Assembly (NCBI GenBank): GCA_964557535.1
Contig: CAZLAD010000002.1
Span: 21,560-85,559 of the forward strand
Length of the DNA: 64,000 bases
Reading direction: 5' to 3'
From: an uncultured Candidatus Saccharibacteria bacterium
Lineage (GTDB): Bacteria; Patescibacteriota; Minisyncoccia; Phycocordibacterales; CSBR16-119
Shown here: one piece after another, positions 9,993 through 61,641 of the stretch
Layout of the letters: the number at the start of each line of letters is the position of its first letter
How positions within the stretch are numbered: the first letter of the stretch is position 1
Made by a program: the position numbers and the translations under genes
Notes under the pieces: generated by a model
Database searches by the model: none
The model's input: only the letters and a program-made list of their open reading frames with translations
Told to the model about the DNA's origin: nothing

Positions 9993-10043
9993 TTTATAAG
10001 TTGGTAAGTAAAGCAAAATATATACGGAAAAGACATTCCGGAA

Positions 10044-10078
10044 CAGAAAACCGGCCTGAGGGCCGGTTTTCTGTTTTC
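10044..10078 (+). terminator. Rho-independent terminator of uppP (cagaaaaccggcc...ggccggttttctg + T-run)
   Basis: Perfect stem seen directly. Confidence 0.6.
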
Positions 10079-10088
10079 TCTCAGCGAA

Positions 10089-10167
10089 GCAAAATCTCCG
10101 TTTTCCGAATCCCGAGGACCTAGTGCGTAGACACGCTTCCGCAGGGTGAGGAAAACGGAGATTTTGC
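10089..10167. repeat. Structured repeat, copy A. A 46-nt conserved core (cgaatcccgaggacctagtgcgtagacacgcttccgcagggtgagg) enclosed by a copy-specific 17-bp perfect inverted repeat
   Basis: Shares the same core (4 mismatches) with 14952-15029, while the flanking stems differ and are compensatory. Confidence 0.6.
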
Positions 10168-10177
10168 ACAGTACCTT

Positions 10178-10345
10178 TTAAAATCTTCGATATCCTCCGC
10201 CACCAGATCCCCCACCTCGCTCATCGCGAGATTTACGGTGACAATCACGACATTTGAGTGTGCCGAGTCTACTTGGGTCTGGTTCAAACGGAAGTTCGGT
10301 AATTGAACCTCCGCAAGTTCCACATGTCCAATTACCCGTAAACAT
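10178..10345 (-). CDS. FmdB-family zinc-ribbon protein with a Gly/Arg-rich tail (start probably at MFTGNWTCGTCG)
   Basis: Motif WTCGTCGG-x17-KCRDC and a C-terminal GGGSGGGGYRRF tail, typical of TIGR02605-like zinc-ribbon proteins. Confidence 0.45.
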   Translation of the reverse strand: MFTGNWTCGTCGGSITELPFEPDPSRLGTLKCRDCHRKSRDERGGGSGGGGYRRF

Positions 10346-10495
10346 CTGACGTGGTGACTGGCTTCCTCCTGTGTTTCCTGTATACATAATCAATACGCTA
10401 AATTTATTAATCTAAACGAAAAAAGTTAACGTATCGACATAACATCACTTTAATTCGTATATTAATTATCAATTAAACCATTCCAAAAGTCAAAG

Positions 10496-11611
10496 TTATT
10501 TGAAAACCTCTTGCACAAGCTCGGGTTTTGTCTCGGCGTCTTTTATTTTAAACCTTATTTCTCCAACTGTCTGCCCCCTGCTTGTCGTAACCTTGACCCG
10601 CCAAGACCCCGGCCAAACATTTGATTTTTGAGAAAATCCTCGAAAACCATCAGTCCGTCCACCGGTGATTGGAATTTTTATACTCGAAGACTCGACCCAA
10701 CGAGTACGTTTGGTATCAAAATATTCCCAAACATGATAAATATCGACACCCAGATTCACAGGTGCATAGACTTCAGTATATACATAAACCGGTTCATTAT
10801 TTGTTCTATTAAAAACACGACTGCGTTTTCTCCAGAATTCAAAGTCCGGAGCCTCTTCATAACTACCATAATATTCAACTGCCTGGATACGATAAAAATC
10901 ATGATAAACTGCGCGAAATTTAAGCGACAGAGGTATTGGTGGGATGACATTTGTAAAATACAAGAAATTAAAAACCAGAAAAATCAAACCAATTCTTGTG
11001 AGAATTTTCGTACGATTAGTGACGAAAGCCGCTCTGTTTATCCTTGAAAGGATAAACAGATAAATCGAAATCAAAAAAAGTCCCGCGAATCCCGACAACA
11101 TATAAATACCCGGACCCATTTGCTTGAAAACCACAGGTAACGAAAATATTAAATAAGAAAAAAGTGCTACGTAAAAAAGACTAATTTGTAAAATAATCTT
11201 TTGAAAATATTTTTTCTTTATCTCGGTCGCAAGCATAAGCGCAAGCAACGCAAAGATAAACGGCCAACTAGAAATAAGCGAGCCTGATTTGGCATAAAAA
11301 ACAGTAAAAGCTGAAAACAATCCGCCAAAAGAAAACAATATTACGGCAGAAATAATTCCATCCTTGTTGGCAATTTTCAGCTTTCTGCCGAGACGACTGT
11401 TCGCCGAAAACAAGAGAGCGATGGAGATTGCAACGATGCAAAGGTGGACCAAAACGACAATATTGTCAAAAGCCTTATCTACTTGGCCAAGTGTCAGTGT
11501 GTCGATAATAAAACCGCCCAAAATAACAGTCGGCAAAAGTAACGTCCTATTACGTTCGATAAAATTCTCGAGGCTTTTTCTTTTTGAGGTAATATAACTT
11601 TTCATAACCAA
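10496..11611 (-). CDS. Membrane protein with an N-terminal polytopic domain and a C-terminal extracytoplasmic domain
   Basis: About 7 hydrophobic helices, then a ~150-aa soluble domain. No function assigned. Confidence 0.5.
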   Translation of the reverse strand: MVMKSYITSKRKSLENFIERNRTLLLPTVILGGFIIDTLTLGQVDKAFDNIVVLVHLCIVAISIALLFSANSRLGRKLKIANKDGIISAVILFSFGGLFSAFTVFYAKSGSLISSWPFIFALLALMLATEIKKKYFQKIILQISLFYVALFSYLIFSLPVVFKQMGPGIYMLSGFAGLFLISIYLFILSRINRAAFVTNRTKILTRIGLIFLVFNFLYFTNVIPPIPLSLKFRAVYHDFYRIQAVEYYGSYEEAPDFEFWRKRSRVFNRTNNEPVYVYTEVYAPVNLGVDIYHVWEYFDTKRTRWVESSSIKIPITGGRTDGFRGFSQKSNVWPGSWRVKVTTSRGQTVGEIRFKIKDAETKPELVQEVFK

Positions 11612-11718: not shown

Positions 11719-12963
11719 TTATACCCTGCCTCGCAATTTCATTGCATCCACGATGCGTTTGACGCCCAGAGAGAAAGCTCCGAGTCGCAAATCAACTTGC
11801 TTGTCCTTGGCCAAAAAATAAACATCTCGATAACTTTTAACGATGATTTCTTTGAGCTTCGACAAGACTTCTGCTTCCGTCCAATAATATCCCTGTCTGT
11901 TCTGAACCCATTCAAAATACGACACGGTAACACCTCCGGCATTGGCGAGCACATCCGGCACGAGTGTTCTACCTTTTTTAAAGAGGATTTCATCGGCTTC
12001 AGGAGTCGTTGGACCGTTGGCCAATTCCAGAATAATTTTTGCTTTAATGTTTACCGCGTTCGACGCAGTGATTTGATTGTCGAGAGCGGCCGGAATCAAA
12101 ACATCGCAATCAACTTCTAAAAGTTCAGTGTTGGTCAAAACTTTGACACCATCTTTTTGAAATTCAATCATGCCCTTCCCGGATTCATCTTTGAAACGAT
12201 TTATCTCTTCGGGATCAAGACCGTTCCCATCATAAAGTCCACCAGAAGAATCCGACACGGCAACGATCTTGCATCCCATGCGATGGAGTATTGACGCCGC
12301 GGTGTATCCGGCGTTACCAAATCCTTGCACGGCGATTTTTAAATCACCAAAATTTAATCCCGCGTCTTTTACCACTTCTTCCAAAACATAAATTCCTCCC
12401 TGAGCTGTGGCAATATTTCTACCAAGTGATCCACCAAGTTCCAGAGGTTTACCAGTAATGACTCCTGGCTCAGCATGTCCAACAATTGATTCAAACTCAT
12501 CCAAGATATAAGACATTATTTGACCATTGGTGTAGACGTCCGGTGCGGGAATGTCTTTGTCGACGCCGATGACAGGCGCCATAGCGCGAGCCCAGGCCCG
12601 AGAGACGAGTTCCAAATCTTTGGCAGAATATTTTTTCGGATCAATTGTCACACCGCCTTTGGCACCTCCTAGTGGAATCCCAACGACAGCGCACTTCACG
12701 GCCATAAGAGCCGCGAGCGCTTTCACTTCATCGAGATCCGCTGCCGAGTGAAAACGAATCCCGCCCTTGAAAGGTCCGCGAGCGTTGTTGAACTGCACAC
12801 GATAGGCGGGGAAAATTTCTTTACCCAAAGATGTTTCAATTTCCAAATTTGTATTGACGATATTTTGCGGTTCGGTCAGTTTGGTAATTTCCGCATCAGA
12901 ATAATTTAAAAGTTTGGCAGTTTTGCCGAGGTTGTCGAGATAATTTTGAAATGGATTATTCAT
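11719..12963 (-). CDS. gdhA: NAD(P)-dependent glutamate dehydrogenase (Glu/Leu/Phe/Val dehydrogenase family)
   Basis: Carries KGGIRFHSAADLDEVKALAALMAVKCAVVGIPLGGAKGG, with the catalytic-Lys region, plus an NAD-binding GFGNAG. Confidence 0.85.
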   Translation of the reverse strand: MNNPFQNYLDNLGKTAKLLNYSDAEITKLTEPQNIVNTNLEIETSLGKEIFPAYRVQFNNARGPFKGGIRFHSAADLDEVKALAALMAVKCAVVGIPLGGAKGGVTIDPKKYSAKDLELVSRAWARAMAPVIGVDKDIPAPDVYTNGQIMSYILDEFESIVGHAEPGVITGKPLELGGSLGRNIATAQGGIYVLEEVVKDAGLNFGDLKIAVQGFGNAGYTAASILHRMGCKIVAVSDSSGGLYDGNGLDPEEINRFKDESGKGMIEFQKDGVKVLTNTELLEVDCDVLIPAALDNQITASNAVNIKAKIILELANGPTTPEADEILFKKGRTLVPDVLANAGGVTVSYFEWVQNRQGYYWTEAEVLSKLKEIIVKSYRDVYFLAKDKQVDLRLGAFSLGVKRIVDAMKLRGRV

Positions 12964-13076
12964 GTTTTTTTACTAATTGTTAGGGCTTAATTATATCCTC
13001 GTTTTGGTATAAAAAGAAATTGGAAGCAGAAAAGCCCCGGATCACCGGGGCTCCTCCACTTCGGTGGGGATACCAC

Positions 13077-14099
13077 CTAGTAGTTTGTGACAACAAGCCC
13101 GCAGGCCCGTCGTTCACCAATCTCACTGGTCTGAACCAACTGATACGCACCGGGTGCGTATCCGGCCAAGCTCATCATCAACGTCGATGATGAACTCGGG
13201 GTTAGTAGGACGTGAACCAAACGACCGTCAGATCCGATGACCTGTAGCGACTGGCCGGGGATGAGGTTTTCGATCGTCACCGTTTCAGCTTCAGTAGCTG
13301 GATTCGGGAAGACCCGCATCTCGCACGGCTTGCACTCAGCCTGATCATCAATTCCGGTCGAGAAGTCGTGATCAAACTCGACAACAGCGAAAGTGCTGCA
13401 GCTGGAGCTATTGCTGACCAGTTCCCAATTCCAGAGCGGGGCAAGCCCCGCATCCTTGTACCACAGCTCGTATGACAGGACATAGTGTCCGGGTTCATCA
13501 AGTTCGAAGTCGTAATACTCGGTGTTTGAGAACCCTGGGGTGATCATCCGATCTTCGGTCCAGACGCTACCTGTGGTGGTATTGGTCAAGATCCTCCTAA
13601 GCCGAAGCAGAACATCAGGAGCCGGATGACCATATCGAGCCACAACGGTAAAAGTGTAGTTGCTACCGTTAATGAACGGTTCGTCCGACACATTCAGCGT
13701 CGGACAAGCCAGTGGACTGAAGGAGTAAATCCCTCCCCCTGTTTCAGGCCGAGGTGAGGCTAATTCAGTCACGCCACCCAGAGGCTTCAAACGCAACTGA
13801 ATGAAATATTCGTGCTCGTTGATGTACGGCTCGATCGGAACAAGGATCACCTCGATTCCAGCGCCGGTCAAGGTATCCGTCAATTCCGGACGCTGAACCC
13901 AGATGTTGGGTGCACTGGTGATGTCCATCACATATACCCGGCGCAGGTAAGTGTCAGAGCCGAAGTCATACGTAACGTTCACCGTTTCCGAAAGCGGAAA
14001 GATCTCCGCGTTCCAGTTGATGACCATCGTCTGCGCCTGCGCGAGGTTCGCGCAGAAGACCGTCGCCACGAAGGCGAACAGGGTTTTCAGGTTCTTCAT
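13077..14099 (-). CDS. GC-rich secreted protein with a C-terminal T9SS (Por) sorting domain (CTD)
   Basis: Signal peptide MKNLKTLFAFVATVFCANLAQA. The last ~80 aa (RVFPNPATEAETVTIENLIPGQSLQVIGSDGRLVHV...) match the Bacteroidetes-type secretion-system C-terminal sorting domain. ~55% GC. Confidence 0.6.
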   Translation of the reverse strand: MKNLKTLFAFVATVFCANLAQAQTMVINWNAEIFPLSETVNVTYDFGSDTYLRRVYVMDITSAPNIWVQRPELTDTLTGAGIEVILVPIEPYINEHEYFIQLRLKPLGGVTELASPRPETGGGIYSFSPLACPTLNVSDEPFINGSNYTFTVVARYGHPAPDVLLRLRRILTNTTTGSVWTEDRMITPGFSNTEYYDFELDEPGHYVLSYELWYKDAGLAPLWNWELVSNSSSCSTFAVVEFDHDFSTGIDDQAECKPCEMRVFPNPATEAETVTIENLIPGQSLQVIGSDGRLVHVLLTPSSSSTLMMSLAGYAPGAYQLVQTSEIGERRACGLVVTNY

Positions 14100-43505: not shown

Positions 43506-44816
43506 ATGAAAACTAATATTGAGGTTGTTTATGTTCGCACGGATCTACTTTCTGCTGCGGAATATAATCCACGCACGTGGGACTCAGAAGCCAAGAAGCA
43601 TTTAACAGAGAGTATTAATAAATTTGGTGTTGTTGATCCGCTCATCGTGAACGGTGCAACGAATCGAAAGAATATTGTTATCGGTGGGCACTTTCGTCTT
43701 GAAGTGTTAAAAGAACTTGGGCATGCCGAAGTTCCTGTCGTGTATCTAAACATACCCGACATAAACAAAGAGAAGGAACTAAATATTCGTCTCAATAAAA
43801 ACCAGGGAGAATTTGATCTCGATCTTCTAACATCTTTCGACGAAGGCTTATTAGCCGATATTGGTTTTTCAAGTGAAGAGCTTGATGATATTTTCCTTGA
43901 TGACATTGAAGAAGATGAGTTTGATCTAAAGAAAGCACTTGAGAGACTAGATATACAAAAAATTTCGGTAAAACCAGGAGATGTATACGAGATAGACGGC
44001 TCGCGTCTTATGTGTGGTGACTCGACAATAGAGTCTGACATGAAAAAGCTTGTGGGGAATGAAAAAGCCGACATGGTAATGACAGATCCACCATATATTC
44101 TCGACTACCTAACAAAACCAAACCAAGGAGGTTTTGGCGCAAATCAGAATAGAAAATATCTTGGAACCGACAGCTTGCCTCCAAACTTCACGGAGCTTTG
44201 GATGAGTAATGTTGCCGGGGCAGCCCAAAAGGATTTCTCTATTATCGTTTACGAGAATTGGAAGAATATTAGAACCATCTGGAATGAAATGGAGAAACAT
44301 TGGCGCGTCCGAAATATGATCGTTTGGCATGCCGCCAATAGAAGCCAGGGATATGCCGGCAAACACAAGTTCTTCAACAAGCACGACATCGCGATTGTTG
44401 GTACGACGCCAGGAAAAGATGTATCCAGCGAACAAGAAGATGCTCTTATCGAAAATGAATATGAGACGGCACTATTTGCAATTTCTGGAAGTCCTCATTG
44501 GGAGAAATATGAGAAAGGTAATCCATACTGTCCAACCGATTTCATCTCTCACAATGTAGCAACTGAAAAATCTTCTGGCCAAGGGGTTGTCTTTGGAACA
44601 AAACCAATCGAACTCTTGATTCCGTATATCAAGGTGCTGACCAAGCGTAATCAGTTGGTCCTGGAACCATTTGGCGGAAGCGGATCAACCCTCATCGCCT
44701 CCATTAAGATTAGTCGTCGATGCTTTACCATGGAGAAATCTCCCGTCTATTCTGAAGTCATCCTTACACGGTGGGAAAAATTAACTGGTAAGAAAAGAGT
44801 AAAAATAAATGCATAA
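43506..44816 (+). CDS. ParB-like nuclease domain fused to an N6A/N4C DNA methyltransferase (circularly permuted motifs: DPPY before FGGSG)
   Basis: N-terminal ParB/Srx fold (VDPLIVNG...GGHFRLEVLKELG), then MVMTDPPY (motif IV) and EPFGGSGSTLIAS (motif I). Confidence 0.75.
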   Translation: MKTNIEVVYVRTDLLSAAEYNPRTWDSEAKKHLTESINKFGVVDPLIVNGATNRKNIVIGGHFRLEVLKELGHAEVPVVYLNIPDINKEKELNIRLNKNQGEFDLDLLTSFDEGLLADIGFSSEELDDIFLDDIEEDEFDLKKALERLDIQKISVKPGDVYEIDGSRLMCGDSTIESDMKKLVGNEKADMVMTDPPYILDYLTKPNQGGFGANQNRKYLGTDSLPPNFTELWMSNVAGAAQKDFSIIVYENWKNIRTIWNEMEKHWRVRNMIVWHAANRSQGYAGKHKFFNKHDIAIVGTTPGKDVSSEQEDALIENEYETALFAISGSPHWEKYEKGNPYCPTDFISHNVATEKSSGQGVVFGTKPIELLIPYIKVLTKRNQLVLEPFGGSGSTLIASIKISRRCFTMEKSPVYSEVILTRWEKLTGKKRVKINA

Positions 44817-45276: not shown

Positions 45277-45882
45277 TTAGTCGATTTGCACTAAGGTGTT
45301 GCAAGCCGTATCGTAACCATCACTCTCATTCTTCAAGAATTCACAGAGATTGCCACTATCGAAGTTCGACCAAGCGATCTTTTCATAGGTCGCTTTGTCG
45401 ATTGTATATACCAAGATCACTTTGTTTTCTGCATTCCCATATTTATCTGTCGTGTCGCCGTAGTACCAAACCAAGACATCGTACGCTTCTGGATGAGAAG
45501 AATATATTTCTTGGAATGTTTTGGCGGATAGCTCTCCTGTATTTCGGTATAAGGAATCTTTGTTGTAGAACGAAGAAAGAGAATATTTAACCGTGATCAT
45601 TTTCGTGTCGACAGGACGATCTGGGTCAGATTTCTCTATGTCCATTCCTACATAGGAAGCATGTGCAAGCGGAATGTCTTTAACAATCGCTTTTAGTCTA
45701 TCTTCTGGCGTTAGTGATTGTGCTGGAACATTTGTTGCAACAGTTTGTTCTGTTTTCTTGCCATCACCAGATCCGGCGATGACGAAAAGAAAAATAATAA
45801 AGACTACAATTCCAGTAATTACTGGGTGGCGTTTGATCCAGGACTTGGTTGTCTTAGGATCCATCATTGGGTGTTTATCCAT
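45277..45882 (-). CDS. N-terminally membrane-anchored extracytoplasmic protein, hypothetical
   Basis: TM helix VITGIVVFIIFLFVIAGSG, then a ~160-aa domain. Confidence 0.45.
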   Translation of the reverse strand: MDKHPMMDPKTTKSWIKRHPVITGIVVFIIFLFVIAGSGDGKKTEQTVATNVPAQSLTPEDRLKAIVKDIPLAHASYVGMDIEKSDPDRPVDTKMITVKYSLSSFYNKDSLYRNTGELSAKTFQEIYSSHPEAYDVLVWYYGDTTDKYGNAENKVILVYTIDKATYEKIAWSNFDSGNLCEFLKNESDGYDTACNTLVQID

Positions 45883-46167: not shown

Positions 46168-48780
46168 TTACTTGATATCTTTTTTAGTTTCCACATTCTT
46201 GATACCCCAAGTTTCAAAAACCTCTCCTGTTATCCTTCTTAGATTTTCATTTTTTGATTTTATTAAATCAGGCATTTTTTTATCTAAGGGGTATTTCGAT
46301 AAGTTAACCCATGGCCACTGGTTCTTTTTAAGAAAACCGATTAATTGTTCTTGGGCGGCTTCATCGGAAGCATTAATCTTATCGACTAGCATGTCCATAA
46401 ATTTAGATGCGTATTCTGAGGGAGGAGGAATTTTTTGGAATCCTTGATTGATAAAATTAGCAATATTATCTGACAAGGCGGCTATATGTTTAGGGATGAT
46501 TCTTTTCCATATCTCTTCGGGTGTGGAAATATTTTGTTGAATTATAAAATTTAGACTCTGAATAAGAACATTAATATCAACTGAATCTTCAATCTTTTTC
46601 AATAGCTCCCCTTCGATCTCGGAAACCTTCCACGAACTATCGTCGGCTTTTGAGACTGCCCAAGTCGTAACGTCTGCATTTAAATCGTATACTTGTTTTA
46701 GAATTTTCTCTTTTAAGATTGTAATTCCGTTAGGTATAAAATATTTCAAAATTTCGAATCTCTTATCTCGTAGATCGTTATTCTCTCCTAACAAACCATC
46801 AGCAAAAGTATTTTCCATACCTTCCATTTCTTTTTGTACCGCAGGTTTATCTAGTTGTGGAAATAGATTTAACATTCTATTTGTTAAATCTGTTGGATTC
46901 TGAGGATAGAAATTCCTGTACCATCTAGTAAGTAGAGAGCTTGTGAAAATTCCAGGCTCAATAATGTTTGCGTTATCAAAATCGTTGGAATTTAGTATAA
47001 AATCAAATTTATTTTTAAAGCCATCGAAGATCGATTGTTCCTCGATAAGATCAATCCAGTGCGTAAAAGAATTAACGATATCAAATTTTTGTGCCAAATT
47101 TACAATAAAGTTGAGGTCTACGTCTTTTAATTTATCTGCAAATATTTTATGAACGGAATACTCTTTGGGAAACTGGGCTAATGCTATCATCAGAGCTTTT
47201 AAGATGCTTCCTCGTGTTTCTTCACCAAGACCTGGTAGTCTAGTCGAGACTACGCCCGCATAGTTAGATAAATTATTATCCCCAGAAGAAGCAAGAACGT
47301 TTTTTATTTGTACTGGATCACCAGTATCAATAATAGAAACAAAATCATCCCCAGATAATCCTCTATGATCACCAAAACTTGCATCTGCCGCCAAGAAAAT
47401 GAATGGTCGTATGTCAGCAATATCTAGACTGAAACCTTTATAGAATCTAGGATCCTCGTAGAGAAATGCCTCTATGAAACTTTTCTGACCCGAAGACATA
47501 TCTGTTCCGTACTTAGTTACTTCTTCATTTATTTTTACAGAATCTTTTTTCTCAACTAGGTACTCTAACTTTAGAAGTATCTCTTGATCATTGACAATTT
47601 TATCAAAAAGAGGCGGGCAAAGTTCTTGTAACATCAGAATACGTACTACGAGGAGGGGTTTATCGAGCATTTCCATAAAGTATTTCTTTTGTATTTCATC
47701 CTGATCACCAGATTTGCTTTGAATGATTTCAAAGGTGAATAATGTAGTTTCAATAAACCTGATAATTTGGCGATAGTTCTTACTGAAATATTTTTTTAAA
47801 TATCCGGCAAAAATAGTTTTATCATCTTCTTTAAGGAATATCTTATCTAGAGCCGAGTCTTTCTCCTTTAGCTTTTTATCAATGAATGAATCGATTTCCT
47901 TTTCTAATGGGAGAGGTAGGCGCCAATAAATATTAAATATTTTCTTTAAAAATCTTCTACCCTCCTCAAGTTGTTCAGGGCTGTTCGAATCCGGAAGAAT
48001 ATCTTTACCTAAATATCTTTCTAGAACGGTATGATCACCTGTTACCACGAATGTAATATCTTTTTTATCGAAGAACGTTCTTAGGTTATCTAGAACAGTA
48101 TGAGCAATTTCTGGAGTTACCCTATCAAGATCATCAACAAAGATAACAGGCTTCTTTTTATCTGATTTAAACGCATCAATAATTTTTCGCAAAAGCTCAT
48201 CAAATTGATCAATTGTAGAAATGGCATGATTACTTTTTTGCACAGTAATCATATTGCCCACAATACCAAGAAAGATTGGTATTCCCATTAACATTATCAA
48301 TGACTTCCAGTTTTGGATGAAAAGTTTGAAAGGATCAGAACATTGCATAACCATGTATACAATAAAGATCGCACCTGCAATCAAGAATAGATTTCCCCAA
48401 TGGACATTTGTCTCCGACGTGTCAAAATCTAGTGCTTTAAGGTCTTCTTTGACACCCGTATCAGTCAAATCACCAGCTAGTGTTTTCAAAAAATTTCTAA
48501 GGAAAGACGTACTATCGCTATCAGAAGCAAATTTCCAAGGATTAATTCTAAATATTTTAAATTTTTCTTCTTTAGAATCGGTCTGACTAACCAAATCTTC
48601 TTCTAATTGGTCCAAAAAGTGTGTTTTACCCTCGCCCCATTTCCCAGAAATACCAAAAATGAAGGATTCGCTATGCTTTCCGTGATTATCCTTTATTGTG
48701 TTGGCTACTTGTTTTACGAAGTATTTTTTACTATCCATAGTCTCGAATTTAGCATAAAAATCTTCATATTTATAGGGCAT
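46168..48780 (-). CDS. KAP-family P-loop NTPase (870 aa) with two TM helices inserted in the NTPase domain
   Basis: Walker A GISGKWGEGKTHF. The hydrophobic helices LFLIAGAIFIVYMVM and LIMLMGIPIFLGIVGNMI sit between Walker A and Walker B (VIFVDDLDR). A long alpha-helical C-terminal region follows. This is the defining KAP architecture. Confidence 0.7.
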   Translation of the reverse strand: MPYKYEDFYAKFETMDSKKYFVKQVANTIKDNHGKHSESFIFGISGKWGEGKTHFLDQLEEDLVSQTDSKEEKFKIFRINPWKFASDSDSTSFLRNFLKTLAGDLTDTGVKEDLKALDFDTSETNVHWGNLFLIAGAIFIVYMVMQCSDPFKLFIQNWKSLIMLMGIPIFLGIVGNMITVQKSNHAISTIDQFDELLRKIIDAFKSDKKKPVIFVDDLDRVTPEIAHTVLDNLRTFFDKKDITFVVTGDHTVLERYLGKDILPDSNSPEQLEEGRRFLKKIFNIYWRLPLPLEKEIDSFIDKKLKEKDSALDKIFLKEDDKTIFAGYLKKYFSKNYRQIIRFIETTLFTFEIIQSKSGDQDEIQKKYFMEMLDKPLLVVRILMLQELCPPLFDKIVNDQEILLKLEYLVEKKDSVKINEEVTKYGTDMSSGQKSFIEAFLYEDPRFYKGFSLDIADIRPFIFLAADASFGDHRGLSGDDFVSIIDTGDPVQIKNVLASSGDNNLSNYAGVVSTRLPGLGEETRGSILKALMIALAQFPKEYSVHKIFADKLKDVDLNFIVNLAQKFDIVNSFTHWIDLIEEQSIFDGFKNKFDFILNSNDFDNANIIEPGIFTSSLLTRWYRNFYPQNPTDLTNRMLNLFPQLDKPAVQKEMEGMENTFADGLLGENNDLRDKRFEILKYFIPNGITILKEKILKQVYDLNADVTTWAVSKADDSSWKVSEIEGELLKKIEDSVDINVLIQSLNFIIQQNISTPEEIWKRIIPKHIAALSDNIANFINQGFQKIPPPSEYASKFMDMLVDKINASDEAAQEQLIGFLKKNQWPWVNLSKYPLDKKMPDLIKSKNENLRRITGEVFETWGIKNVETKKDIK

Positions 48781-48800: not shown

Positions 48801-50147
48801 GTGTTTGCGTCATCCATAGAGTATATGGAAAAAGCGATTACAGGGCTTATAAGCCCACCAGTGTTACCCAGTATAGAGAAAGTCAGGTATTGTCTCTACG
48901 CTCGTAAATCCAGTGAGGATTCCAGCGAAAAACAGGCCCTTTCGGTGGATTCCCAAGTTAAGGAAATGTTGGCTATTGCCGAGCGAGAAAACTTAGAAAT
49001 CGTGGATATTCGGCGTGAGTCTCATTCGGCCAAGGATTCTGGTCAAAGACCTGTTTTTAACGAATTGGTTCGGGATCTCCGTAGTGGAAGATACACGGGT
49101 ATTTTAACCTGGGCCCCGGATAGACTTTCGAGAAATGCAGGAGATTTGGGCTCGCTCGTTGACCTGATGGATCAGAAACTTCTTCATGAGATAAGAACCT
49201 ACGGCCAGTACTTTAGAAATTCTCCGAATGAGAAATTTCTTTTGATGATTCTATGTTCACAAGCGAAACTTGAGAATGATAATAAAAGTATCAATGTTAA
49301 ACGTGGTCTTCGTACACGATGTGAAATGGGACTGTGGCCTGCGCCAGCTCCAATGGGATATTTAAATGAAATGAAGACGGACAGAAAAGGATATGTCTAT
49401 GTTGATCCAGAAAGAGGACATGTTATTAAAAAAATGTTTGAGAAAGTTGCCTTTGAAAAATGGAGCGGTAGAAAACTTTATCACTGGTTAAAGTTTGAGC
49501 TAAATTTTAAGACACCAAACGGCAATAAAGGCTTAACCTTGAGTTGTATTTATCTGATTCTTAGCAATCACTTTTATTATGGTACTTTTGAATTCCCAAG
49601 AAAAAGTGGTGTATGGTACAAAGGCATACACGAACCTATTATCACGAAAGAATTATTTGATCAGGTTCAAGAGCAGATGAGAAGCCAGTTCGTGAAATCA
49701 GAAACAAAAGAGTTTGCTTTCACGAAGCTTATGGCCTGCGGGCTGTGCGGTTCTGGCGTAACGGCTGATGAGAAATTTAAAAAGCAGAAAAATGGAAATA
49801 TACACAGACATGTTTATTATGGGTGTACTAGGGTACGCGACCAAAATTGTAAATGTGCATATATTAATGAGCCAGATCTTATTAAAGAATTTGAGTGCCT
49901 AATGGACGAAATTGATCTCAATGAGTTGGGGATGAAAGAAAAGATTAAACTTGAAATTGAACGATTCAAAAAGTTCCAGAAACTCGTTTCTGGTAAAAGC
50001 CAAATCATCAAAATTGATGAGGTTGATATACGAAATTACGCAAAGTTTGTTTTGGCTGAAGGAGCGCTGATTGAGAAACGTGAATTGCTTGGGAATTTAA
50101 AAGGAAAGATTATATTAGGAGATAAGAAAATCTCTTTAGTTTCCTAA
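48801..50147 (+). CDS. Large serine recombinase (resolvase catalytic domain + recombinase domain + zinc ribbon)
   Basis: YARKSSEDSSEKQALSVDSQ (catalytic Ser), DRLSRN, and CGLCGSGV...YYGCTRVRDQNCKC zinc ribbon. 448 aa. Confidence 0.8.
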   Translation: MFASSIEYMEKAITGLISPPVLPSIEKVRYCLYARKSSEDSSEKQALSVDSQVKEMLAIAERENLEIVDIRRESHSAKDSGQRPVFNELVRDLRSGRYTGILTWAPDRLSRNAGDLGSLVDLMDQKLLHEIRTYGQYFRNSPNEKFLLMILCSQAKLENDNKSINVKRGLRTRCEMGLWPAPAPMGYLNEMKTDRKGYVYVDPERGHVIKKMFEKVAFEKWSGRKLYHWLKFELNFKTPNGNKGLTLSCIYLILSNHFYYGTFEFPRKSGVWYKGIHEPIITKELFDQVQEQMRSQFVKSETKEFAFTKLMACGLCGSGVTADEKFKKQKNGNIHRHVYYGCTRVRDQNCKCAYINEPDLIKEFECLMDEIDLNELGMKEKIKLEIERFKKFQKLVSGKSQIIKIDEVDIRNYAKFVLAEGALIEKRELLGNLKGKIILGDKKISLVS

Positions 50148-50954
50148 TTCTTTTTTAAGAACAAAAATTTTCTTGGTAATCGTGAATTGAATAGTATTTC
50201 CTAGATCTTCGTACTTGAGCTTTTCTTTTAATTCGGGGTTAAATCTTTCGCGGATGTATTGGTTGAGCTGTTCAAGTTTCGACATGTCGCCGCCGAGCTC
50301 TTGTTCAAGTCGTCGAATAGAGTTAAACCGATAGTGGATAGGATGAAATTCATGAATGTTTCCGAAACCAGCCTTTTTAACATTTTCAATAAATTCATCT
50401 TCTCTAAAAAAGTATCTCTCGGTCATGAGCATGTCGAAGCCGCTCAATTCGTCTTTCTTGCGGATAATGTCTTGGAACAAGGTTTGAGTTTCATTGTCGA
50501 GCATGATGTCCCAGATGACAATCTTGCCAGTTGGCTTTAGTAACTTGTGGAACTCTTGTAGCACCTCGAGTTGCAAGGCCTTGGAAACCTCGTGGAGCCC
50601 CATTTTGAGTGCTATGGTATCGAAAAAAGATTCTTTGAATGGAGCTCCGGGCAAAGATGCGACAGAAAATCTTTCGGCTGGAAGATTTGGCAAATTTTCT
50701 CTCGCTCGCTGTACCTGTACATCACTTTCATCGACGAGATAGACGACTGCGTTCGGATTTCTCTCTAATACCTCTTTACCGATAGCTCCATATCCGCCCA
50801 TGGCGTCCAAAACGATCTCACCATCTTTCGGATCAATAGCATCAATAAACGCCTTTTTATCCGCAGGGTCAATCGAGTGGATGTACTCATAGGAAACTAT
50901 TCTATTGTCGAATCCTTGTTTCATAATTTTACAGATAATCTCCTCCGCTTTCAT
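50136..50954 (-). CDS. Class I SAM-dependent methyltransferase
   Basis: VLDAMGGYGAIG (motif I), YLVDESD (acidic post-I), KPTGKIVIWD. Confidence 0.65.
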   Translation of the reverse strand: MKAEEIICKIMKQGFDNRIVSYEYIHSIDPADKKAFIDAIDPKDGEIVLDAMGGYGAIGKEVLERNPNAVVYLVDESDVQVQRARENLPNLPAERFSVASLPGAPFKESFFDTIALKMGLHEVSKALQLEVLQEFHKLLKPTGKIVIWDIMLDNETQTLFQDIIRKKDELSGFDMLMTERYFFREDEFIENVKKAGFGNIHEFHPIHYRFNSIRRLEQELGGDMSKLEQLNQYIRERFNPELKEKLKYEDLGNTIQFTITKKIFVLKKELGN

Positions 50955-51750
50955 TTTTGAATTCCTTTCTGAATTGTTTCCATCCGATAAGATTGCCCAT
51001 TCTTTTTCTTGTGTTTAGTGCTTGAGCGACATGCTCGAATGGACTCCAGTGTCCAGACGAAGAAAGCCTCTCACATAATTTTAGATCGCTATTGATATCA
51101 GAAGTTTTTCCATCAAAAAGAGAGTAACTCACTCGTGCGCATCGAGCCGCACTAATCTTTTTTCTCATCTCTAGATCAAGGGTATGTTCAGTGTCTAAAA
51201 TAAAAGGAAGATGCCATTCATCAGATTGCAATATGTTTGGTTTCTGATCCTGTAAGAGTAAATTCATCCTTTCTGCGACATATCTGATTTCAGGCTGAGC
51301 GGCTTCGTTTGATCTTAGAGAAATAAAGTTGGACCACTCTGTCGCAGTTATAATCACATCAACCATGAGCCAAGGTTCTATGAGTCGATTCACCACCTCC
51401 TTATGCATTCCTAGTTTTTCTCCCAGCCAATGAAAGAAAACAGGTACATACCTAGACCAAAGCCATATCTTTTTTGCCAAGAATAGTTTTAGACCTCTAA
51501 AGGGCTTGCCAGATTGCATGCCAGCCCTGTTCTCACCGAAATATACTGGCAAGAAAGGATCATTAAGAACATATTTTCTAATTCTTTTTGCTGGAATAGC
51601 CCTACTCGAGGCAGAGTTTCTTGAAAGCGTTCGATGACTAATGATATGTCCCCAAAGAAATTTGGGGATCTTGAGAACAAAAGTTGCCAGACGCTTTTGG
51701 GTATCTGTTGATTCAGAATAAGTAATTAATGATACTTTAATTTTATTCAT
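50929..51750 (-). CDS. ThyX-like (flavin-dependent thymidylate synthase fold) protein with altered motif order and a degenerate signature
   Basis: N-terminal FVLKIPKFLWGHIISHRTLSRNSASSRA aligns with the ThyX segment [28 protein letters not shown]. The first Arg of the RHR signature motif is replaced by Ser. C-terminal AARCARVSYSLFDG...GHWSPFEHV resembles the ThyX N-terminal segment AARVSFD...GHETPFEH. Confidence 0.5.
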   Translation of the reverse strand: MNKIKVSLITYSESTDTQKRLATFVLKIPKFLWGHIISHRTLSRNSASSRAIPAKRIRKYVLNDPFLPVYFGENRAGMQSGKPFRGLKLFLAKKIWLWSRYVPVFFHWLGEKLGMHKEVVNRLIEPWLMVDVIITATEWSNFISLRSNEAAQPEIRYVAERMNLLLQDQKPNILQSDEWHLPFILDTEHTLDLEMRKKISAARCARVSYSLFDGKTSDINSDLKLCERLSSSGHWSPFEHVAQALNTRKRMGNLIGWKQFRKEFKNESGGDYL

Positions 51751-52879
51751 GTTTGTCTAGTATATCAGTTACCGTATCAGGGACGTCGATAAACCCAAGC
51801 TGTCCAATTTCGTTGTTTGTCAGAGCTTCTAAAGTTGATCCGTACAATAGGCCAATAGTACGTTCGATTTCTTCTGGGGTTGATTCGTATCGATTACCTT
51901 TGAATGTTATTGGAAACCCGTTGTTTATGAGTACCAAATTATCCCAAATAACATCTCCATGGATTTCAGAAGATTTAATACTGTTTTTTCTTATGTATAT
52001 TGTCGGGAACTCGCGATCAGCCGATGACATACTTATAAGGTAGAGCTTATAATCTAAAAGATCTTTAATTTCTTGAAGCTGTTCCTCGTTTAGAATATTT
52101 GAACCCGTCACACCAACCACAACATTAATATTATTATCTCGAATCAGGTTCACTAATTCAGATTTATCATGGTGAGCAATATCGTACCCTAATGCAAAAT
52201 AACCTTTCTCTTTAAATATCGAAAGCGTATTACTACCCATAGGTCCTAGTCCGACAACGAGAATTCTTGGTTCAGCAATGGAATACTGCTTGAACGCATC
52301 TACCATTCTATTGCACCCCAGCTCCGCGATGAGAGGACTTTCTTTTATAAGTTTGACCGAAGCACGGGCGACATTGAATATTGGGAAATGAACTTGTGAT
52401 TTTTCAAGCTTTCTAAAACCAGATGAGGTTTGTTCGATGCCGATGACAGGAATCTCTTTGGATATAGAATCAAATTTATCATTTACGATTCTAAGCAACT
52501 CTCCACCATCATCTAAAATAATAACTTTTGAAGGATTCTTGATCCGAGACAAGAATAAATCGAGTTGCTTGGTGCAATTTTCAGCATGTTCGATATCGAA
52601 TGAGACAGATTGATCGAAGTTTGGTTGGACAACATTAAATCCAGCGTCAGATAATTCTTTCAATACTTCATTACTGGTTGAATAGATCTTGCCGAAGATA
52701 TGAATGTTCTCTTTTGGAACACCAAACTCTACCAATAACTCAAACATTTTTGCTTGCGACTCGAGTATGTGCTGACAGGCGAGAATATAGACATTATCAA
52801 ATCCACCCTTTTTTGAATCAAAATAACGGGAGATCTCCTCCAGTAGAGAATACTTATAAGCTGTTTCCATGACTTCCAT
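51743..52879 (-). CDS. S-adenosyl-L-homocysteine hydrolase-like protein (divergent)
   Basis: ILACQHILESQAKMFELLVEFG...IHIFGKIYSTSNEV matches GCLHMTxQTAVLIETLxxLGA...CNIFSTQDHAA. VIILDDGGEL matches ILDDGGDL. NAD-binding VVGLGPMGS matches AGYGDVGKG. Confidence 0.55.
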   Translation of the reverse strand: MEVMETAYKYSLLEEISRYFDSKKGGFDNVYILACQHILESQAKMFELLVEFGVPKENIHIFGKIYSTSNEVLKELSDAGFNVVQPNFDQSVSFDIEHAENCTKQLDLFLSRIKNPSKVIILDDGGELLRIVNDKFDSISKEIPVIGIEQTSSGFRKLEKSQVHFPIFNVARASVKLIKESPLIAELGCNRMVDAFKQYSIAEPRILVVGLGPMGSNTLSIFKEKGYFALGYDIAHHDKSELVNLIRDNNINVVVGVTGSNILNEEQLQEIKDLLDYKLYLISMSSADREFPTIYIRKNSIKSSEIHGDVIWDNLVLINNGFPITFKGNRYESTPEEIERTIGLLYGSTLEALTNNEIGQLGFIDVPDTVTDILDKHE

Positions 52880-52950: not shown

Positions 52951-53024
52951 TGGCTGCGGAACCTGGACTCGAACCAAGATACCCTCCTCCAGAGGGAGGT
53001 GTCCTACCATTAGACGATTCCGCA
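52951..53024 (-). tRNA. tRNA-Gln(CUG), CCA encoded
   Basis: Cloverleaf UGCGGAA-UC-GUCUAAUGGUAGGAC-A-CCUCC-CUCUGGA-GGAGG-GUAU-CUUGG-UUCGAGU-CCAGG-UUCCGCA-G-CCA, similar to E. coli tRNA-Gln2. Confidence 0.75.
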
Positions 53025-53109: not shown

Positions 53110-53838
53110 TTGTCCATGACTGAAAACAATAAACCTTTTAGACCAAAGAAGCTTTCGATCGAAGAAATCAAGAGTGGCTGCGTCTATGTCTACGGCAAAG
53201 ACTCTGACGAGACTCAAATCTGCGTCATGAACGAAGAATTTCGCCAAGGCTTCGATATAGTGAAGAAAAACAAAGACGGAAATAAATCCGTCACTTTCTG
53301 GGGATCAGCCAGATTCCCCGTCGAAAACGAATACTATCAAAAGGCTTTACGACTCGGACGCAGACTTGCTCAGGAACTCAACTGCATGATCGTCACCGGC
53401 GGCGGCCCAGGCATCATGGAAGCCGGCAATCGCGGAGCTTATGAAATGGGCAAACCGTCTCTTGGCCTCACCATCAATTTGCCGATGGAACAACAGACCA
53501 ATCGCTACGTCACGGAGGAAATTCCTTTCTACTTTTTCTTCACCCGAAAAACACTTATGGCATATTCTGCCGAAGCATATCTGTACTTCCCCGGCGGATA
53601 CGGCACACTCGACGAACTTTTTGAAATTTTGACACTTGTCCAAACGGGCAAAATTTCCAAACTACCGATCATCCTCGTCGGCGAGAAATTCTGGAGACCG
53701 CTCGATGAGTTCATCCGCCAAACACTCGACACCGAGAACCAAACCGTCTCTCACGAAGACTTAAATCTTTATCAGATCATCGATGACGAAGACCAGATCA
53801 TCGAAATCGTCAAAAACGCACCGATGAGAAATGATTAA
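53110..53838 (+). CDS. LOG-family protein (TIGR00730 Rossmann-fold nucleotide-binding / cytokinin riboside 5'-monophosphate phosphoribohydrolase-like)
   Basis: IVTGGGPGIMEAGNRGA and YFPGGYGTLDELFE motifs. Confidence 0.75.
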   Translation: MSMTENNKPFRPKKLSIEEIKSGCVYVYGKDSDETQICVMNEEFRQGFDIVKKNKDGNKSVTFWGSARFPVENEYYQKALRLGRRLAQELNCMIVTGGGPGIMEAGNRGAYEMGKPSLGLTINLPMEQQTNRYVTEEIPFYFFFTRKTLMAYSAEAYLYFPGGYGTLDELFEILTLVQTGKISKLPIILVGEKFWRPLDEFIRQTLDTENQTVSHEDLNLYQIIDDEDQIIEIVKNAPMRND

Positions 53839-53841
53839 TTT

Positions 53842-54708
53842 ATGTCACTTGGAATATTAGCCGCCATAATCGCCATGCTCTGTTGGGGCTTTGGCGATTT
53901 TCTAATTCAACGTTCGACGAGAAAAATTGGCGACTGGGAAACACTTTTCCTGATTACTCTTCTAGGTACGATCGGACTGCTTCCATTTGTTTGGAAAGAT
54001 TTTCCAAATTTTTTCCAAAACATTGATTCGACAGCGTGGATACTTGGTGTGGCCGGAATCCTTCTATTTATAGCCGCACTTTTAGAATTCGAAGCCTTAA
54101 AAGAAGGCAAAATTTCGGTAATTGAGCCAACTTGGTCGCTCGAGATTCCGGTGGCAGCAATATTGGCGGCTTTTATCCTAAGCGAGTCTCTCACTATCAC
54201 GCAAATAATTCTTGTCGCGACACTTATCGTCGGGCTTTTCTTCGTTTCATATAAAGGCGCAATCACGAAGAAATTTTTCCTAGAAAAAGGTGTTGTTATT
54301 TCTGTGTTTGCGGCAATCATGATGGGTACAACAAACTTTTTCGTCGGCTGGGGCGCACGAGAAACGGATCCACTTATGATAAATTTTGTTATCAGCTTCG
54401 TCTCGCTTCTTGGATCTTTTATTTTTTTGGTCGTCAGGGGAAGAGTTGAAAAGACTTTTTCTCATTTGATTAAATATTCAAAAACACTTCTCCCTATGAT
54501 GGTTCTCGACAACAGCGCCTGGATCGCGTTTGCCTTTGCCATGACGCTCGCGCCAATCGGGATCACGGTCGCGCTATCTGAAAGTTATATTATCATCGCA
54601 GTAATTCTGGGGATCTTCATAAGCAAAGAAAAACTCAGCAGACGTCAACTTGCCGGGCTCTTGGTCGCACTAACCTCAGCCATACTTTTGGCGATGGTGA
54701 CTATTTAG
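53842..54708 (+). CDS. EamA/DMT-superfamily transporter (10 TM)
   Basis: Two 5-TM repeats. Confidence 0.6.
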   Translation: MSLGILAAIIAMLCWGFGDFLIQRSTRKIGDWETLFLITLLGTIGLLPFVWKDFPNFFQNIDSTAWILGVAGILLFIAALLEFEALKEGKISVIEPTWSLEIPVAAILAAFILSESLTITQIILVATLIVGLFFVSYKGAITKKFFLEKGVVISVFAAIMMGTTNFFVGWGARETDPLMINFVISFVSLLGSFIFLVVRGRVEKTFSHLIKYSKTLLPMMVLDNSAWIAFAFAMTLAPIGITVALSESYIIIAVILGIFISKEKLSRRQLAGLLVALTSAILLAMVTI

Positions 54709-60832: not shown

Positions 60833-60909
60833 TGAGCCATCTCCCGGGATTGAACCGGGGGCCTCATCTTTACGAAAGATGCGCTCTACCAACTGAGCTA
60901 AGATGGCTC
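60833..60909 (-). tRNA. tRNA-Thr(CGU)
   Basis: GAGCCAUCUUAGCUCAGUUGGUAGAGCGCAUCUUUCGUAAAGAUGAGG-CCCCGGUUCAAUCCCGGGAGAUGGCUCA. Anticodon loop UUCGUAA. Confidence 0.75.
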
Positions 60910-60939
60910 GCCAATTGTGTGCGACATTTATCCCGTGAG

Positions 60940-61012
60940 AGCCGATGGCGAGACTTGCACTCGCGGCCTCCCCCTTACCATGGGGGTGCTCGACTACCTG
61001 AGCTTCATCGGC
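60940..61012 (-). tRNA. tRNA-Thr(GGU)-like gene with unusual features (T-loop TGCAAGT, A8, U73, acceptor helix extendable to 11 bp by flanking complementarity); possibly a divergent or pseudo tRNA
   Basis: GCCGAUG-AA-GCUC-AGGUAGUC-GAGC-A-CCCCC-AUGGUAA-GGGGG-AGGCC-GCGAG-UGCAAGU-CUCGC-CAUCGGC-U. Confidence 0.5.
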
Positions 61013-61170
61013 TCTCATGAGACAAAGTATTTTATCTTGGCGACAGTCGTCATGATAGCCAAAAGCCCGCTATATTTCAAGCGAGCTTTCTTTGACGAGA
61101 ACAAAAAGGGATTGAAAAGTAGAGGCTTTTATGTTAGTTTTTACCTATTGTCGCGTCAGACGCGACTTAT

Positions 61171-61244
61171 GTCGGGGTAGCTCAGACGGTTAGAGCGTAG
61201 CACTCATAACGCTAAGGTCGAGAGTTCGATTCTCTCCCCCGACA
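61171..61244 (+). tRNA. tRNA-Met(CAU) (elongator-type; could also be tRNA-Ile2)
   Basis: GUCGGGG-UA-GCUC-AGACGGUUA-GAGC-G-UAGCA-CUCAUAA-CGCUA-AGGUC-GAGAG-UUCGAUU-CUCUC-CCCCGAC-A. Confidence 0.75.
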
Positions 61245-61371
61245 CAGCGTGCGGGGAGGAAAGCAAACGACTTTGCTTTCCGTGAGGAATCGAAGGCCGG
61301 AGTCATGTCTCAAGCAATTAAAGAGACAGGCGAGGCGGGGTCGCGACCTTTTGCCAGGCAAAAGAGTTGTG

Positions 61372-61392
61372 ACCGATTCTCTCCCCCGACAC
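61372..61392 (+). repeat. Direct repeat of the last 20 nt of tRNA-Met plus 2 flanking nt (cgattctctcccccgacaca), 128 nt downstream of the tRNA
   Basis: 61227-61246 and 61373-61392 are identical. Confidence 0.7.
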
Positions 61393-61444
61393 AAAAACAT
61401 TGGCGATTTTAGGCTTTTTGTGATAGACTTTCGCCATTGTTATT

Positions 61445-61518
61445 GCGGGCGTAGCTCAACTGGTTAGAGCACTCCCCTGTCACGGGAGAGGTTGCGGGTT
61501 CGAGTCCCGTCGCTCGCG
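61445..61518 (+). tRNA. tRNA-Asp(GUC)
   Basis: GCGGGCG-UA-GCUC-AACUGGUUA-GAGC-A-CUCCC-CUGUCAC-GGGAG-AGGUU-GCGGG-UUCGAGU-CCCGU-CGCUCGC-G. Confidence 0.8.
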
Positions 61519-61520
61519 CA

Positions 61521-61560
61521 GCAAAGTGAAAAGCCGCCTTTTGGCGGCTTTTCACTTTTT
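61521..61560 (+). terminator. Strong rho-independent terminator (aagtgaaaagccgcc tttt ggcggcttttcactt + T-run)
   Basis: 15-bp stem. Confidence 0.7.
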
Positions 61561-61570
61561 CTTAAGTTTG

Positions 61571-61641
61571 TTGCGGGGGGCCGACTCGAACGGCCGTCCT
61601 CAGGTTATGAGCCTGATGAGTTACCACTACTCCACCCCGCT
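61571..61641 (-). tRNA. Initiator-type tRNA-Met(CAU) (1:72 mismatch, A73, CUCAUAA loop; ends approximate)
   Basis: AGCGGGG-UGGAGUAGUGGUAACUCAUCAGG-CUCAUAA-CCUGAGGACGGCCGUUCGAGUCGGCC-CCCCGCA-A. Compared with E. coli tRNA-fMet CGCGGGG...CCCCGCA-A. Confidence 0.65.

Follow-up and report, generated by a model that had tools for sequence, protein, structure and literature searches.

Canonical ThyX (PF02511), represented by TM0449 of Thermotoga maritima (Tm) and by the Mycobacterium tuberculosis enzyme, and the ThyX-like UMP/dUMP methylase PolB are the closest known kin of the ThyX-like protein considered in this work. ThyX is an antibacterial target, and the in vivo source of its reductant and one-carbon unit is still debated. 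The phage thymidylate synthases of phrog_85 are collinear with our protein over the full length, with 36-41% identity and the same rearranged architecture. Its partner has a two-domain fold in common with S-adenosylhomocysteine hydrolase (AhcY/SAHH; human 1LI4, Cytophaga 6GBN) and with S-inosyl-homocysteine hydrolase. Here we are presenting an analysis of this ThyX-like and SAHH-like gene pair, found in a stretch of 64,000 nucleotides (nt) from an uncultured Candidatus Saccharibacteria bacterium (contig CAZLAD010000002.1), to which we refer as the window. The two genes form a conserved, translationally coupled and sometimes fused chromosomal module, typical of Paceibacteria-type Patescibacteria (Candidate Phyla Radiation, CPR). 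A preliminary description of the window had joined the pair with a downstream methyltransferase gene into a three-gene operon inside a recombinase-bearing island, and had proposed for it a role in nucleotide modification. The linkage of SAHH-like and ThyX genes appears to be undescribed within the searchable literature, in which we found nothing relevant on a ThyX-SAHH fusion, the SAHH-like family, ThyX permutation, or ThyX and S-adenosylhomocysteine (SAH) in CPR bacteria.

Results

The SAHH-like and ThyX-like genes form a conserved pair

Both genes are located on the minus strand. In the transcription sense the gene for the SAHH-like, NAD-binding type protein comes first (51743-52879; 378 amino acids (aa), or 375 aa from Met4 in the NCBI call), and the ThyX-like gene of the rearranged ("permuted") subfamily comes second (50929-51750; 273 aa), with an unambiguous overlap of 8 nt. 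The usual order in relatives is likewise SAHH-like followed by ThyX, and the junction there is an overlap of 8 nt or 4 nt or a gap of 2-7 nt.

For the analysis of neighbourhoods we used a sample of 50 genome, 76 metagenome and 2 "viral" loci, in which open reading frames (ORFs) were called and scored with the hidden Markov models (HMMs) of the families. The neighbours could be read for 92 unique SAHH-like genes, of which 17 had a ThyX-like gene adjacent or fused, and this association was concentrated in the clade close to the window protein (13/25, as compared with 4/67 elsewhere). The opposite order, ThyX followed by SAHH-like, was seen at two loci (L070, L083). Fusions were found in both orders, SAHH-like to ThyX in three proteins (P0178, P0201, P0208) and at one genome locus (L018), and ThyX to SAHH-like in one protein (P0301). 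Beside unpaired SAHH-like genes no canonical or divergent ThyX was detected by HMM, and ThyX relatives with an identity of no more than 48% occur alone.

Outside the window the pair was observed in varied surroundings. In the locus with 90% ThyX identity (L056) it lies beside the genes of ribosomal proteins S14, S8 and L6, followed by SecY, while at 83% identity (L057) it has NUDIX downstream and HamA with a helicase upstream. At 74% identity (L002) TrmB is found upstream and LMWPc downstream, and at 62% (L004) the neighbours are a DAO-family oxidoreductase and a Mur ligase. The functional link between the two genes, which forms part of the three-gene reading of the preliminary description, is supported by the recurrent overlaps, by the frequency of adjacency and by the fusions in either order.

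The ThyX-like protein belongs to a rearranged subfamily

The ThyX fold assigned in the preliminary description was borne out by Pfam and TIGRFAM matches and by structure superposition: the PF02511 score exceeds the gathering threshold, and a viral predicted structure superposes on the protein with TM 0.91 over 271 columns. The score with the TIGR02170 equivalog model, 53.7 bits, is below its cut-off of 87.9. The motif order is permuted, as had been claimed, since the two profiles match in swapped order, residues 22-171 of the window protein (hereafter the query) corresponding to PF02511 profile positions 59-190 and residues 198-243 to TIGR02170 positions 15-60. Query 195-272 aligns to Tm ThyX 17-91, and the native protein can be aligned to the Tm enzyme only in three non-collinear pieces. 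When query 176-241 was relocated to after residue 19, the alignment became collinear and the E-value changed from 1.5e-9 to 2.2e-11. The Tm sequence used in this comparison agrees with the stretch shown in a database alignment. This un-permuting test supports a rearrangement, by which the alpha1-alpha2-"GHxxPFEH" segment has been shifted from near the N-terminus to the C-terminus across the subfamily. The equivalent of Tm 17-59 is thus C-terminal and is followed by a degenerate copy of the beta3/"RHR" region.

In place of the signature RHRxxxxxxxS the query has S38-H39-R40 ... S48, in which the first Arg is replaced and the His, the second Arg and the Ser are retained, so SHR had been read correctly. 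T/S-H-R occupies this position throughout the subfamily alignment of 82 sequences. Two residues of the C-terminal degenerate copy, Gln259 and Arg261, are invariant, and the absent first Arg may be replaced functionally by Arg261. The notion that SHR and permutation are peculiar to the window gene was rejected, both being subfamily-wide and common to annotated phage thymidylate synthases. The gene falls within a known subfamily that is widely annotated, with full-length matches to 6,134 database proteins and a match to phrog_85 ("thymidylate synthase") in a single stretch at 3.4e-60. Full-length relatives were found in 1,034 phage records, most of those listed being annotated as thymidylate synthase, and the carriers include N4-like phages, Myxococcus phage Mx1 and Microcystis phage Mic1. 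To our knowledge no structure has been solved for the rearranged subfamily.

Residues S88, R90, R147, N169, R174, H53 and E58/H59 of Tm ThyX correspond to query S48, R50, R122, N141, R146, H234 and E239/H240, all invariant in the 82 sequences, and H39, aligned to Tm H79, is conserved in at least 90% of them. The dUMP-binding Arg set (Tm R90, R147, R174) and the equivalents of Tm H53 and N169 are therefore all retained by alignment, including the flavin-site histidine; the roles of these residues are those which we take to be established in the ThyX literature. Because the aligned residues are retained, the most economical and most likely reading is that the protein is an ordinary active dTMP synthase. 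It would convert deoxyuridine monophosphate (dUMP) into deoxythymidine monophosphate (dTMP) with flavin adenine dinucleotide (FAD), methylene-tetrahydrofolate and NAD(P)H, as is assumed for its phage relatives.

The partner of the ThyX-like protein has a divergent SAHH fold

No Pfam model, PF05221 and PF00670 included, matched the SAHH-like protein, and with the ahcY equivalog TIGR00936 it reached 28.5 bits at a cut-off of 497.6. A profile of 88 relatives matched SAHH and AHCYL chains at about 1e-10, and the two-domain SAHH fold with its Rossmann domain for nicotinamide adenine dinucleotide (NAD) is present, 342 residues being superposed, at an identity to SAHH of about 18%. The earlier assignment to a divergent SAHH-like protein stands as regards the fold, and is not backed by the family HMM scores. 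The protein is a divergent member of the SAHH fold and represents a new branch without annotation; the family has no Pfam model, and no paper on it was found in the literature searched.

The residues of SAHH were mapped by profile alignments to SAHH and AHCYL and by hhalign against human SAHH. The numbering of the human sequence used reproduces H55, D131, E156, K186, D190, N191, H301, H353, K426 and Y430. Human H55, D131 and K186 are kept as query H37, D124 and K176, and the NAD motif GxGxxG is kept at G210-G215. E155/E156 is represented by E149/Q150, in which E155 is kept and Glu156 has become Gln, T157-159 by the similar T151-S153, and the changes of D190 to E180 and of E243 to D233 are conservative, while N191 is changed to S181. 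The losses comprise H301 (S286), the adenine-binding T57/E59 (L39/P41) and the K426/Y430 tail, which has no counterpart in the query as the protein stops at 378 aa. The correspondence of H301 to S286 rests on the AHCYL alignment, the C-terminal half of human SAHH being too weakly similar to the family HMM for a glocal alignment.

Among the 88 sequences the majority of the mapped query residues do not vary, and this holds for H37, D124, Q150, K176, E180 and S286; the figure is at least 90% for L39 and P41, and S181 falls outside the conserved columns. The family also has invariant novelties of its own, namely K64, R172, "SSSDREF" (283-291) and the core of "NGFPITFKG" (319-328), and further basic residues, R289 (invariant) and K327 (at least 90%). 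As judged by these alignments, the redox core appears to be retained, with its Lys, acid, Asp and His residues and the NAD site, and the pocket for the base, some of the hydrolytic apparatus and the oligomerisation tail appear to be lost. Complete loss of catalytic residues from the ThyX-like and SAHH-like proteins, which the preliminary description had thought would speak against it, was not seen, at least some of them being kept in each.

An exhaustive profile search against clusters at 50% identity found 693 of them at E <= 1e-30, and 2,623 when the limit was relaxed to E <= 1e-3. A word-indexed search gave 346 close relatives, of which the named ones belong to Parcubacteria, Paceibacterota, Minisyncoccia and Taylorbacteria, and in IMG they are often labelled "S-adenosylhomocysteine hydrolase".

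The SAHH-like family has other partners

Among 86 further same-strand genes located within 150 nt of SAHH-like genes, class I methyltransferases were the commonest Pfam family (up to 12). In one Paceibacteria subclade a Methyltransf_25/11 gene of 254-257 aa lies 3 nt downstream of the SAHH-like gene, and such spacing was noted at L073, L008 and L075. Three fusion proteins combine the SAHH-like domain with three different types of methyltransferase according to Pfam (P0289, P0315, P0342), and P0281 has an N-terminal methyltransferase-like motif, read by eye only. Other fusions are with NUDIX (P0288) and with a HisKA-HATPase-REC kinase (P0291). A hybrid histidine kinase adjoining or fused to the SAHH-like domain was also observed at L059 (7884-10793) and L060 (7884-9923), on contigs filed as viral in IMG/VR. 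The association with histidine kinases suggests that the SAHH-like domain is used there as a sensor domain.

One genome locus, L008, contains two SAHH-like paralogues (10004-11119 and 12871-13995), 1.8 kb apart and 68% and 44% identical to the query, and it is the second one which is followed after 3 nt by a class I methyltransferase. In a distant clade (Chlamydiae, Gammaproteobacteria and Bdellovibrio-like metagenome-assembled genomes) the SAHH-like gene is clustered with an MTS-type methyltransferase and an SDR or Zn-ADH gene, and an EamA-type transporter gene recurs in six loci (L043, L048, L113, L111, L118, L049); this cluster looks like a small-molecule operon or one related to S-adenosylmethionine (SAM) and SAH. 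The neighbours in Paceibacteria are mixed and often nucleotide-related: phosphoribosyltransferases, an adenylate/thymidylate-kinase-like protein, IMPDH/GMP reductase, holB, a CYTH protein and a deoxyribosyltransferase-like protein. The connection with methylation drawn in the preliminary description thus has some basis in the SAHH-like family, which is repeatedly tied to SAM methyltransferases.

The methyltransferase of the window is a neighbour of the pair

The third gene of the proposed operon is a minus-strand class I SAM-dependent methyltransferase ORF (50136-50954, 272 aa as the longest ORF). Its assignment holds, with matches above the cut-offs to several Pfam models (Methyltransf_25, 31, 11, 12 and 23), and all three minus-strand ORFs are present with real domain assignments. 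The two overlaps that had been described fared differently: the 8-nt one recurs in relatives with some variation in length, and the 26-nt overlap of methyltransferase and ThyX genes hinges on the choice of start codon. Translation probably begins at Met11 (50924, minus strand), which gives a protein of 262 aa and a gap of 4 nt after the ThyX stop. A gene caller begins the methyltransferase of an identical contig at Met11, and all 66 homologues below the identical match favour the shorter length (66/66; the close ones are 258-260 aa), while the sequence itself is compatible with either codon.

By phmmer against all ORFs of 136 loci, no homologue of this methyltransferase was found near other SAHH-like/ThyX loci, except in an identical copy. 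Nor did it resemble the methyltransferase domains present in fusions with SAHH-like proteins, and homologues were found alone in unrelated contexts at L137-L141, without a ThyX or SAHH-like gene. The candidate role of a conserved third member was therefore rejected, given the absence of homologues from the 136 loci and the stand-alone occurrence of the family elsewhere; the methyltransferase is an adjacent, lineage-specific neighbour and not a member of the module. Neighbourhood conservation accordingly speaks for the pair and against the trio, which as a system reduces to the pair with a methyltransferase beside it in this lineage alone.

The family of this methyltransferase comprises 67 proteins from CPR bacteria and Nanoarchaeota (DPANN), the nearest being 64% identical. 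In P0424 and P0426 we noticed that the family is common to CPR and Nanoarchaeota at 53-55% identity. This sharing hints at transfer between two episymbiont groups. The only PADLOC model matched by the window methyltransferase was mad2, and in our reading of the matched region this probably reflects a generic methyltransferase domain.

Genomic surroundings of the pair

Upstream of the pair, on the same strand, a tRNA-Gln(CTG) gene (52951-53024, minus; ARAGORN and Rfam) ends 71 nt before the SAHH-like start, and as a neighbour of this gene it is possibly co-transcribed with it. A scan for promoters and terminators gave no internal signals above shuffled expectation, which neither supports nor excludes such signals, and no riboswitch or leader was found near the operon with Rfam. 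The opposite flank carries a large serine recombinase with Resolvase, Recombinase and Zn-ribbon domains (48801-50147), a KAP-family P-loop NTPase of 870 aa (46168-48780, minus) and a fusion of ParB_N with an N6_N4 DNA methylase (43506-44816, plus). These neighbours and the tRNA-Gln had been named correctly in the preliminary description, as confirmed by Pfam-type models and ARAGORN. The recombinase and methyltransferase ORFs are convergent, and their 3' ends overlap by 12 nt (50136-50147).

The content of guanine and cytosine (GC) is lower in the recombinase/KAP/ParB-methylase patch (0.34-0.38, with 46-49 kb low). The KAP NTPase, which matches the PifA, QatA and PDC-S20 defence models, occupies the lowest-GC stretch of the window (0.34-0.35). 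A ParB-methylase with 65% identity is found in another genome, at L013 (1909-3228), 1.7 kb upstream of the pair, and gives the only hint of an "island" gene recurring nearby. The patch also harbours a full-length LOOT RNA (RF03000; 45938-46050, minus; 79.8 bits, gathering threshold 46.4), just upstream of an ORF of 201 aa (45277-45882) without a Pfam match.

Location of the pair inside a recombinase-bearing island could not be sustained. A search for delimiting repeats at 41-54 kb gave short repeats at chance level only, so that no boundaries were found, and the relatives of the pair are found in diverse settings, chromosomal for the most part. A search of 50,697 phage records gave no SAHH-like counterpart apart from a canonical ahcY, and neither member of the pair was matched by a PADLOC defence model. 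The genes for the recombinase, the KAP NTPase and the ParB-methylase look like an unrelated mobile or defence patch which adjoins the pair and does not carry it.

Elsewhere the window has the content of an ordinary chromosome, with genes for SecA, RNase J, an amidase, an ABC-F protein, CTP synthase, FtsE/X-like proteins and release factor 2. Divergent from the tRNA-Gln/SAHH-like side, at 53110-54708 (plus), are a LOG/SLOG-family gene (PF03641) and a membrane-protein ORF of 288 aa, the latter taken as an EamA-type transporter from its sequence alone; its identification with the EamA gene of the distant clade was rejected, as the two are unrelated. Farther away we noticed a complete group I intron (RF00028; 2476-2749, plus; 72.6 bits) just upstream of an ORF of 1,298 aa (2902-6798) without a Pfam match, with no rRNA or tRNA host detected around it, and five tRNA genes on both strands at 60834-61641 (Thr-CGT, Thr-GGT, Met, Asp, Met).

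Discussion

Building on the folds, residue conservation, gene linkage and fusions observed, we tentatively propose that the pair consists of a dTMP synthase and a partner for SAH-type hydrolysis or sensing, physically coupled to thymidylate synthesis, a proposal that we hold to be quite possible and still short of probable. The SAHH-like protein would hold NAD and use the transient 3'-OH oxidation of a nucleoside known from SAHH, with participation of the Lys, acid, Asp and His residues. It would form a physical complex with the ThyX protein, as suggested by the translational coupling and by the fusions in either order. Its ligand would be SAH or a close 5'-substituted nucleoside, either hydrolysed or sensed, because the many methyltransferase partners of the family share only SAM/SAH; turnover or sensing of this ligand would make the synthesis of thymidylate responsive to the cellular SAM/one-carbon state. 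The methyltransferase of the window would at most profit from SAH removal.

Several points weigh against this proposal. A number of SAHH hallmarks have failed, as His301 is Ser, Glu156 is Gln, Thr57/Glu59 are Leu/Pro, the tail is absent and the equivalog score is as low as 28.5 bits, and the invariant basic residues K64, R172 and R289, together with K327, could point to an anionic substrate, e.g. a nucleotide, and not to SAH. We know of no biochemical reason for coupling SAH hydrolysis physically to ThyX, and the phage relatives of ThyX work without a SAHH-like partner, which is absent from phage records. The paralogues of L008, one of them with a methyltransferase, are easier to reconcile with subunits dedicated to particular partners than with a general SAH hydrolase.

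Such partner-specific paralogues in one genome would also be expected if the SAHH-like protein were a non-catalytic or slow ligand-sensing regulatory subunit (for SAH, adenosine or NAD(H)) modulating the attached partner, be it ThyX, a methyltransferase, NUDIX or a histidine kinase, a reading which we consider unlikely; the animal pseudo-enzymes AHCYL/IRBIT may serve here for comparison. The fusion of the domain to unrelated output enzymes and its association with HisKA-HATPase-REC kinases (P0291 and the L059 and L060 loci) are in line with regulation, as is the loss of His301 and of the C-terminal tail, which canonical SAHH requires for catalysis and for retaining NAD, but the Lys/acid/Asp/His and NAD motifs are invariant across very distant members in an active-site-like manner, and 370 aa is large for a sensor module. 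Replacement of the adenine-binding residues and conservation of new basic ones could be explained by an enzyme of nucleotide metabolism, which either acts before or after ThyX, by 3'-oxidation of the SAHH type, on a new (deoxy)uridine-type or other 5'-substituted nucleoside or nucleotide, or recharges the ThyX flavin as an NAD(H)-linked reductase. ThyX fusions in both orders, NUDIX fusion and adjacency, and the nucleotide-related neighbours in Paceibacteria (phosphoribosyltransferases, IMPDH/GMP reductase, kinase-like, deoxyribosyltransferase-like and CYTH proteins) are consistent with this explanation. It is nevertheless an unlikely one, as it leaves the recurrent fusion or adjacency to at least four kinds of SAM methyltransferase unexplained, gene neighbours are weak evidence in compact CPR genomes, and direct oxidation of NAD(P)H is the norm among ThyX enzymes.

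A more far-reaching version, which we regard as distinctly unlikely, is that the SAHH-like family constitutes a new class of NAD-dependent enzymes giving Patescibacteria a modified route of thymidylate synthesis through coupling to ThyX. The partner would then supply reducing equivalents or the one-carbon unit, or make the nucleotide substrate by redox-assisted chemistry of the SAHH type; if true, dTMP synthesis would be partly independent of the free NADPH and folate supply in these cofactor-poor symbionts. Highly improbable is the view closest to the preliminary description, in which the three genes constitute one pathway of nucleotide or DNA hypermodification (anti-restriction) or of defence, placed on a recombinase-bearing mobile island. 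The tight same-strand packing beside a serine recombinase, a PifA/QatA-like KAP NTPase and a ParB-methylase, the lower GC at 46-49 kb and the 65%-identical ParB-methylase located 1.7 kb from the pair in L013 could be cited in its favour. However, the trio is confined to this lineage, at 90% and 83% ThyX identity the pair precedes genes for ribosomal proteins or NUDIX, and the methyltransferase family stands alone elsewhere. Furthermore, the SAHH-like protein is missing from phage records, no defence model matches the pair, and no island boundaries were found. There is no sign of DNA hypermodification, anti-restriction or defence, and the ThyX residues fit plain dTMP synthesis, so a nucleotide-modifying pathway or a phage-type hypermodification or defence module is not what the locus appears to encode.

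Returning to the pair as a putative dTMP synthase with an SAH-type partner, a conserved and repeatedly fused companion of ThyX would offer a direct handle on the question of its reductant and one-carbon unit. CPR bacteria are devoid of many cofactor pathways, and the pair could inform us about their nucleotide and one-carbon economy. The "S-adenosylhomocysteine hydrolase" labels given in IMG may mislead metabolic reconstructions, because the family fails several SAHH hallmarks.

When set beside the known systems, the ThyX-like protein differs from canonical ThyX in the C-terminal position of the Tm 17-59 segment, in the subfamily-wide Ser/Thr in place of the first Arg of RHR and in the TIGR02170 score below the cut-off. 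From its phrog_85 relatives the locus differs in gene context, as the phage genes stand alone and the SAHH-like partner was not found in phage records. The SAHH-like protein has kept the GxGxxG and acidic NAD motif of SAHH and the equivalents of His55, Asp131, Glu155, Lys186 and Asp190 (as Glu), whereas with about 375 aa it is shorter than AhcY/SAHH, lacks the C-terminal tail and has the new motifs "SSSDREF" and "NGFPITFKG". The fused forms of the pair are reminiscent of the bifunctional DHFR-TS of protozoa and plants, in which a thymidylate synthase is likewise fused to a dinucleotide-binding partner enzyme; the folds differ and there is no homology, so that the likeness of the two arrangements is one of analogy only.

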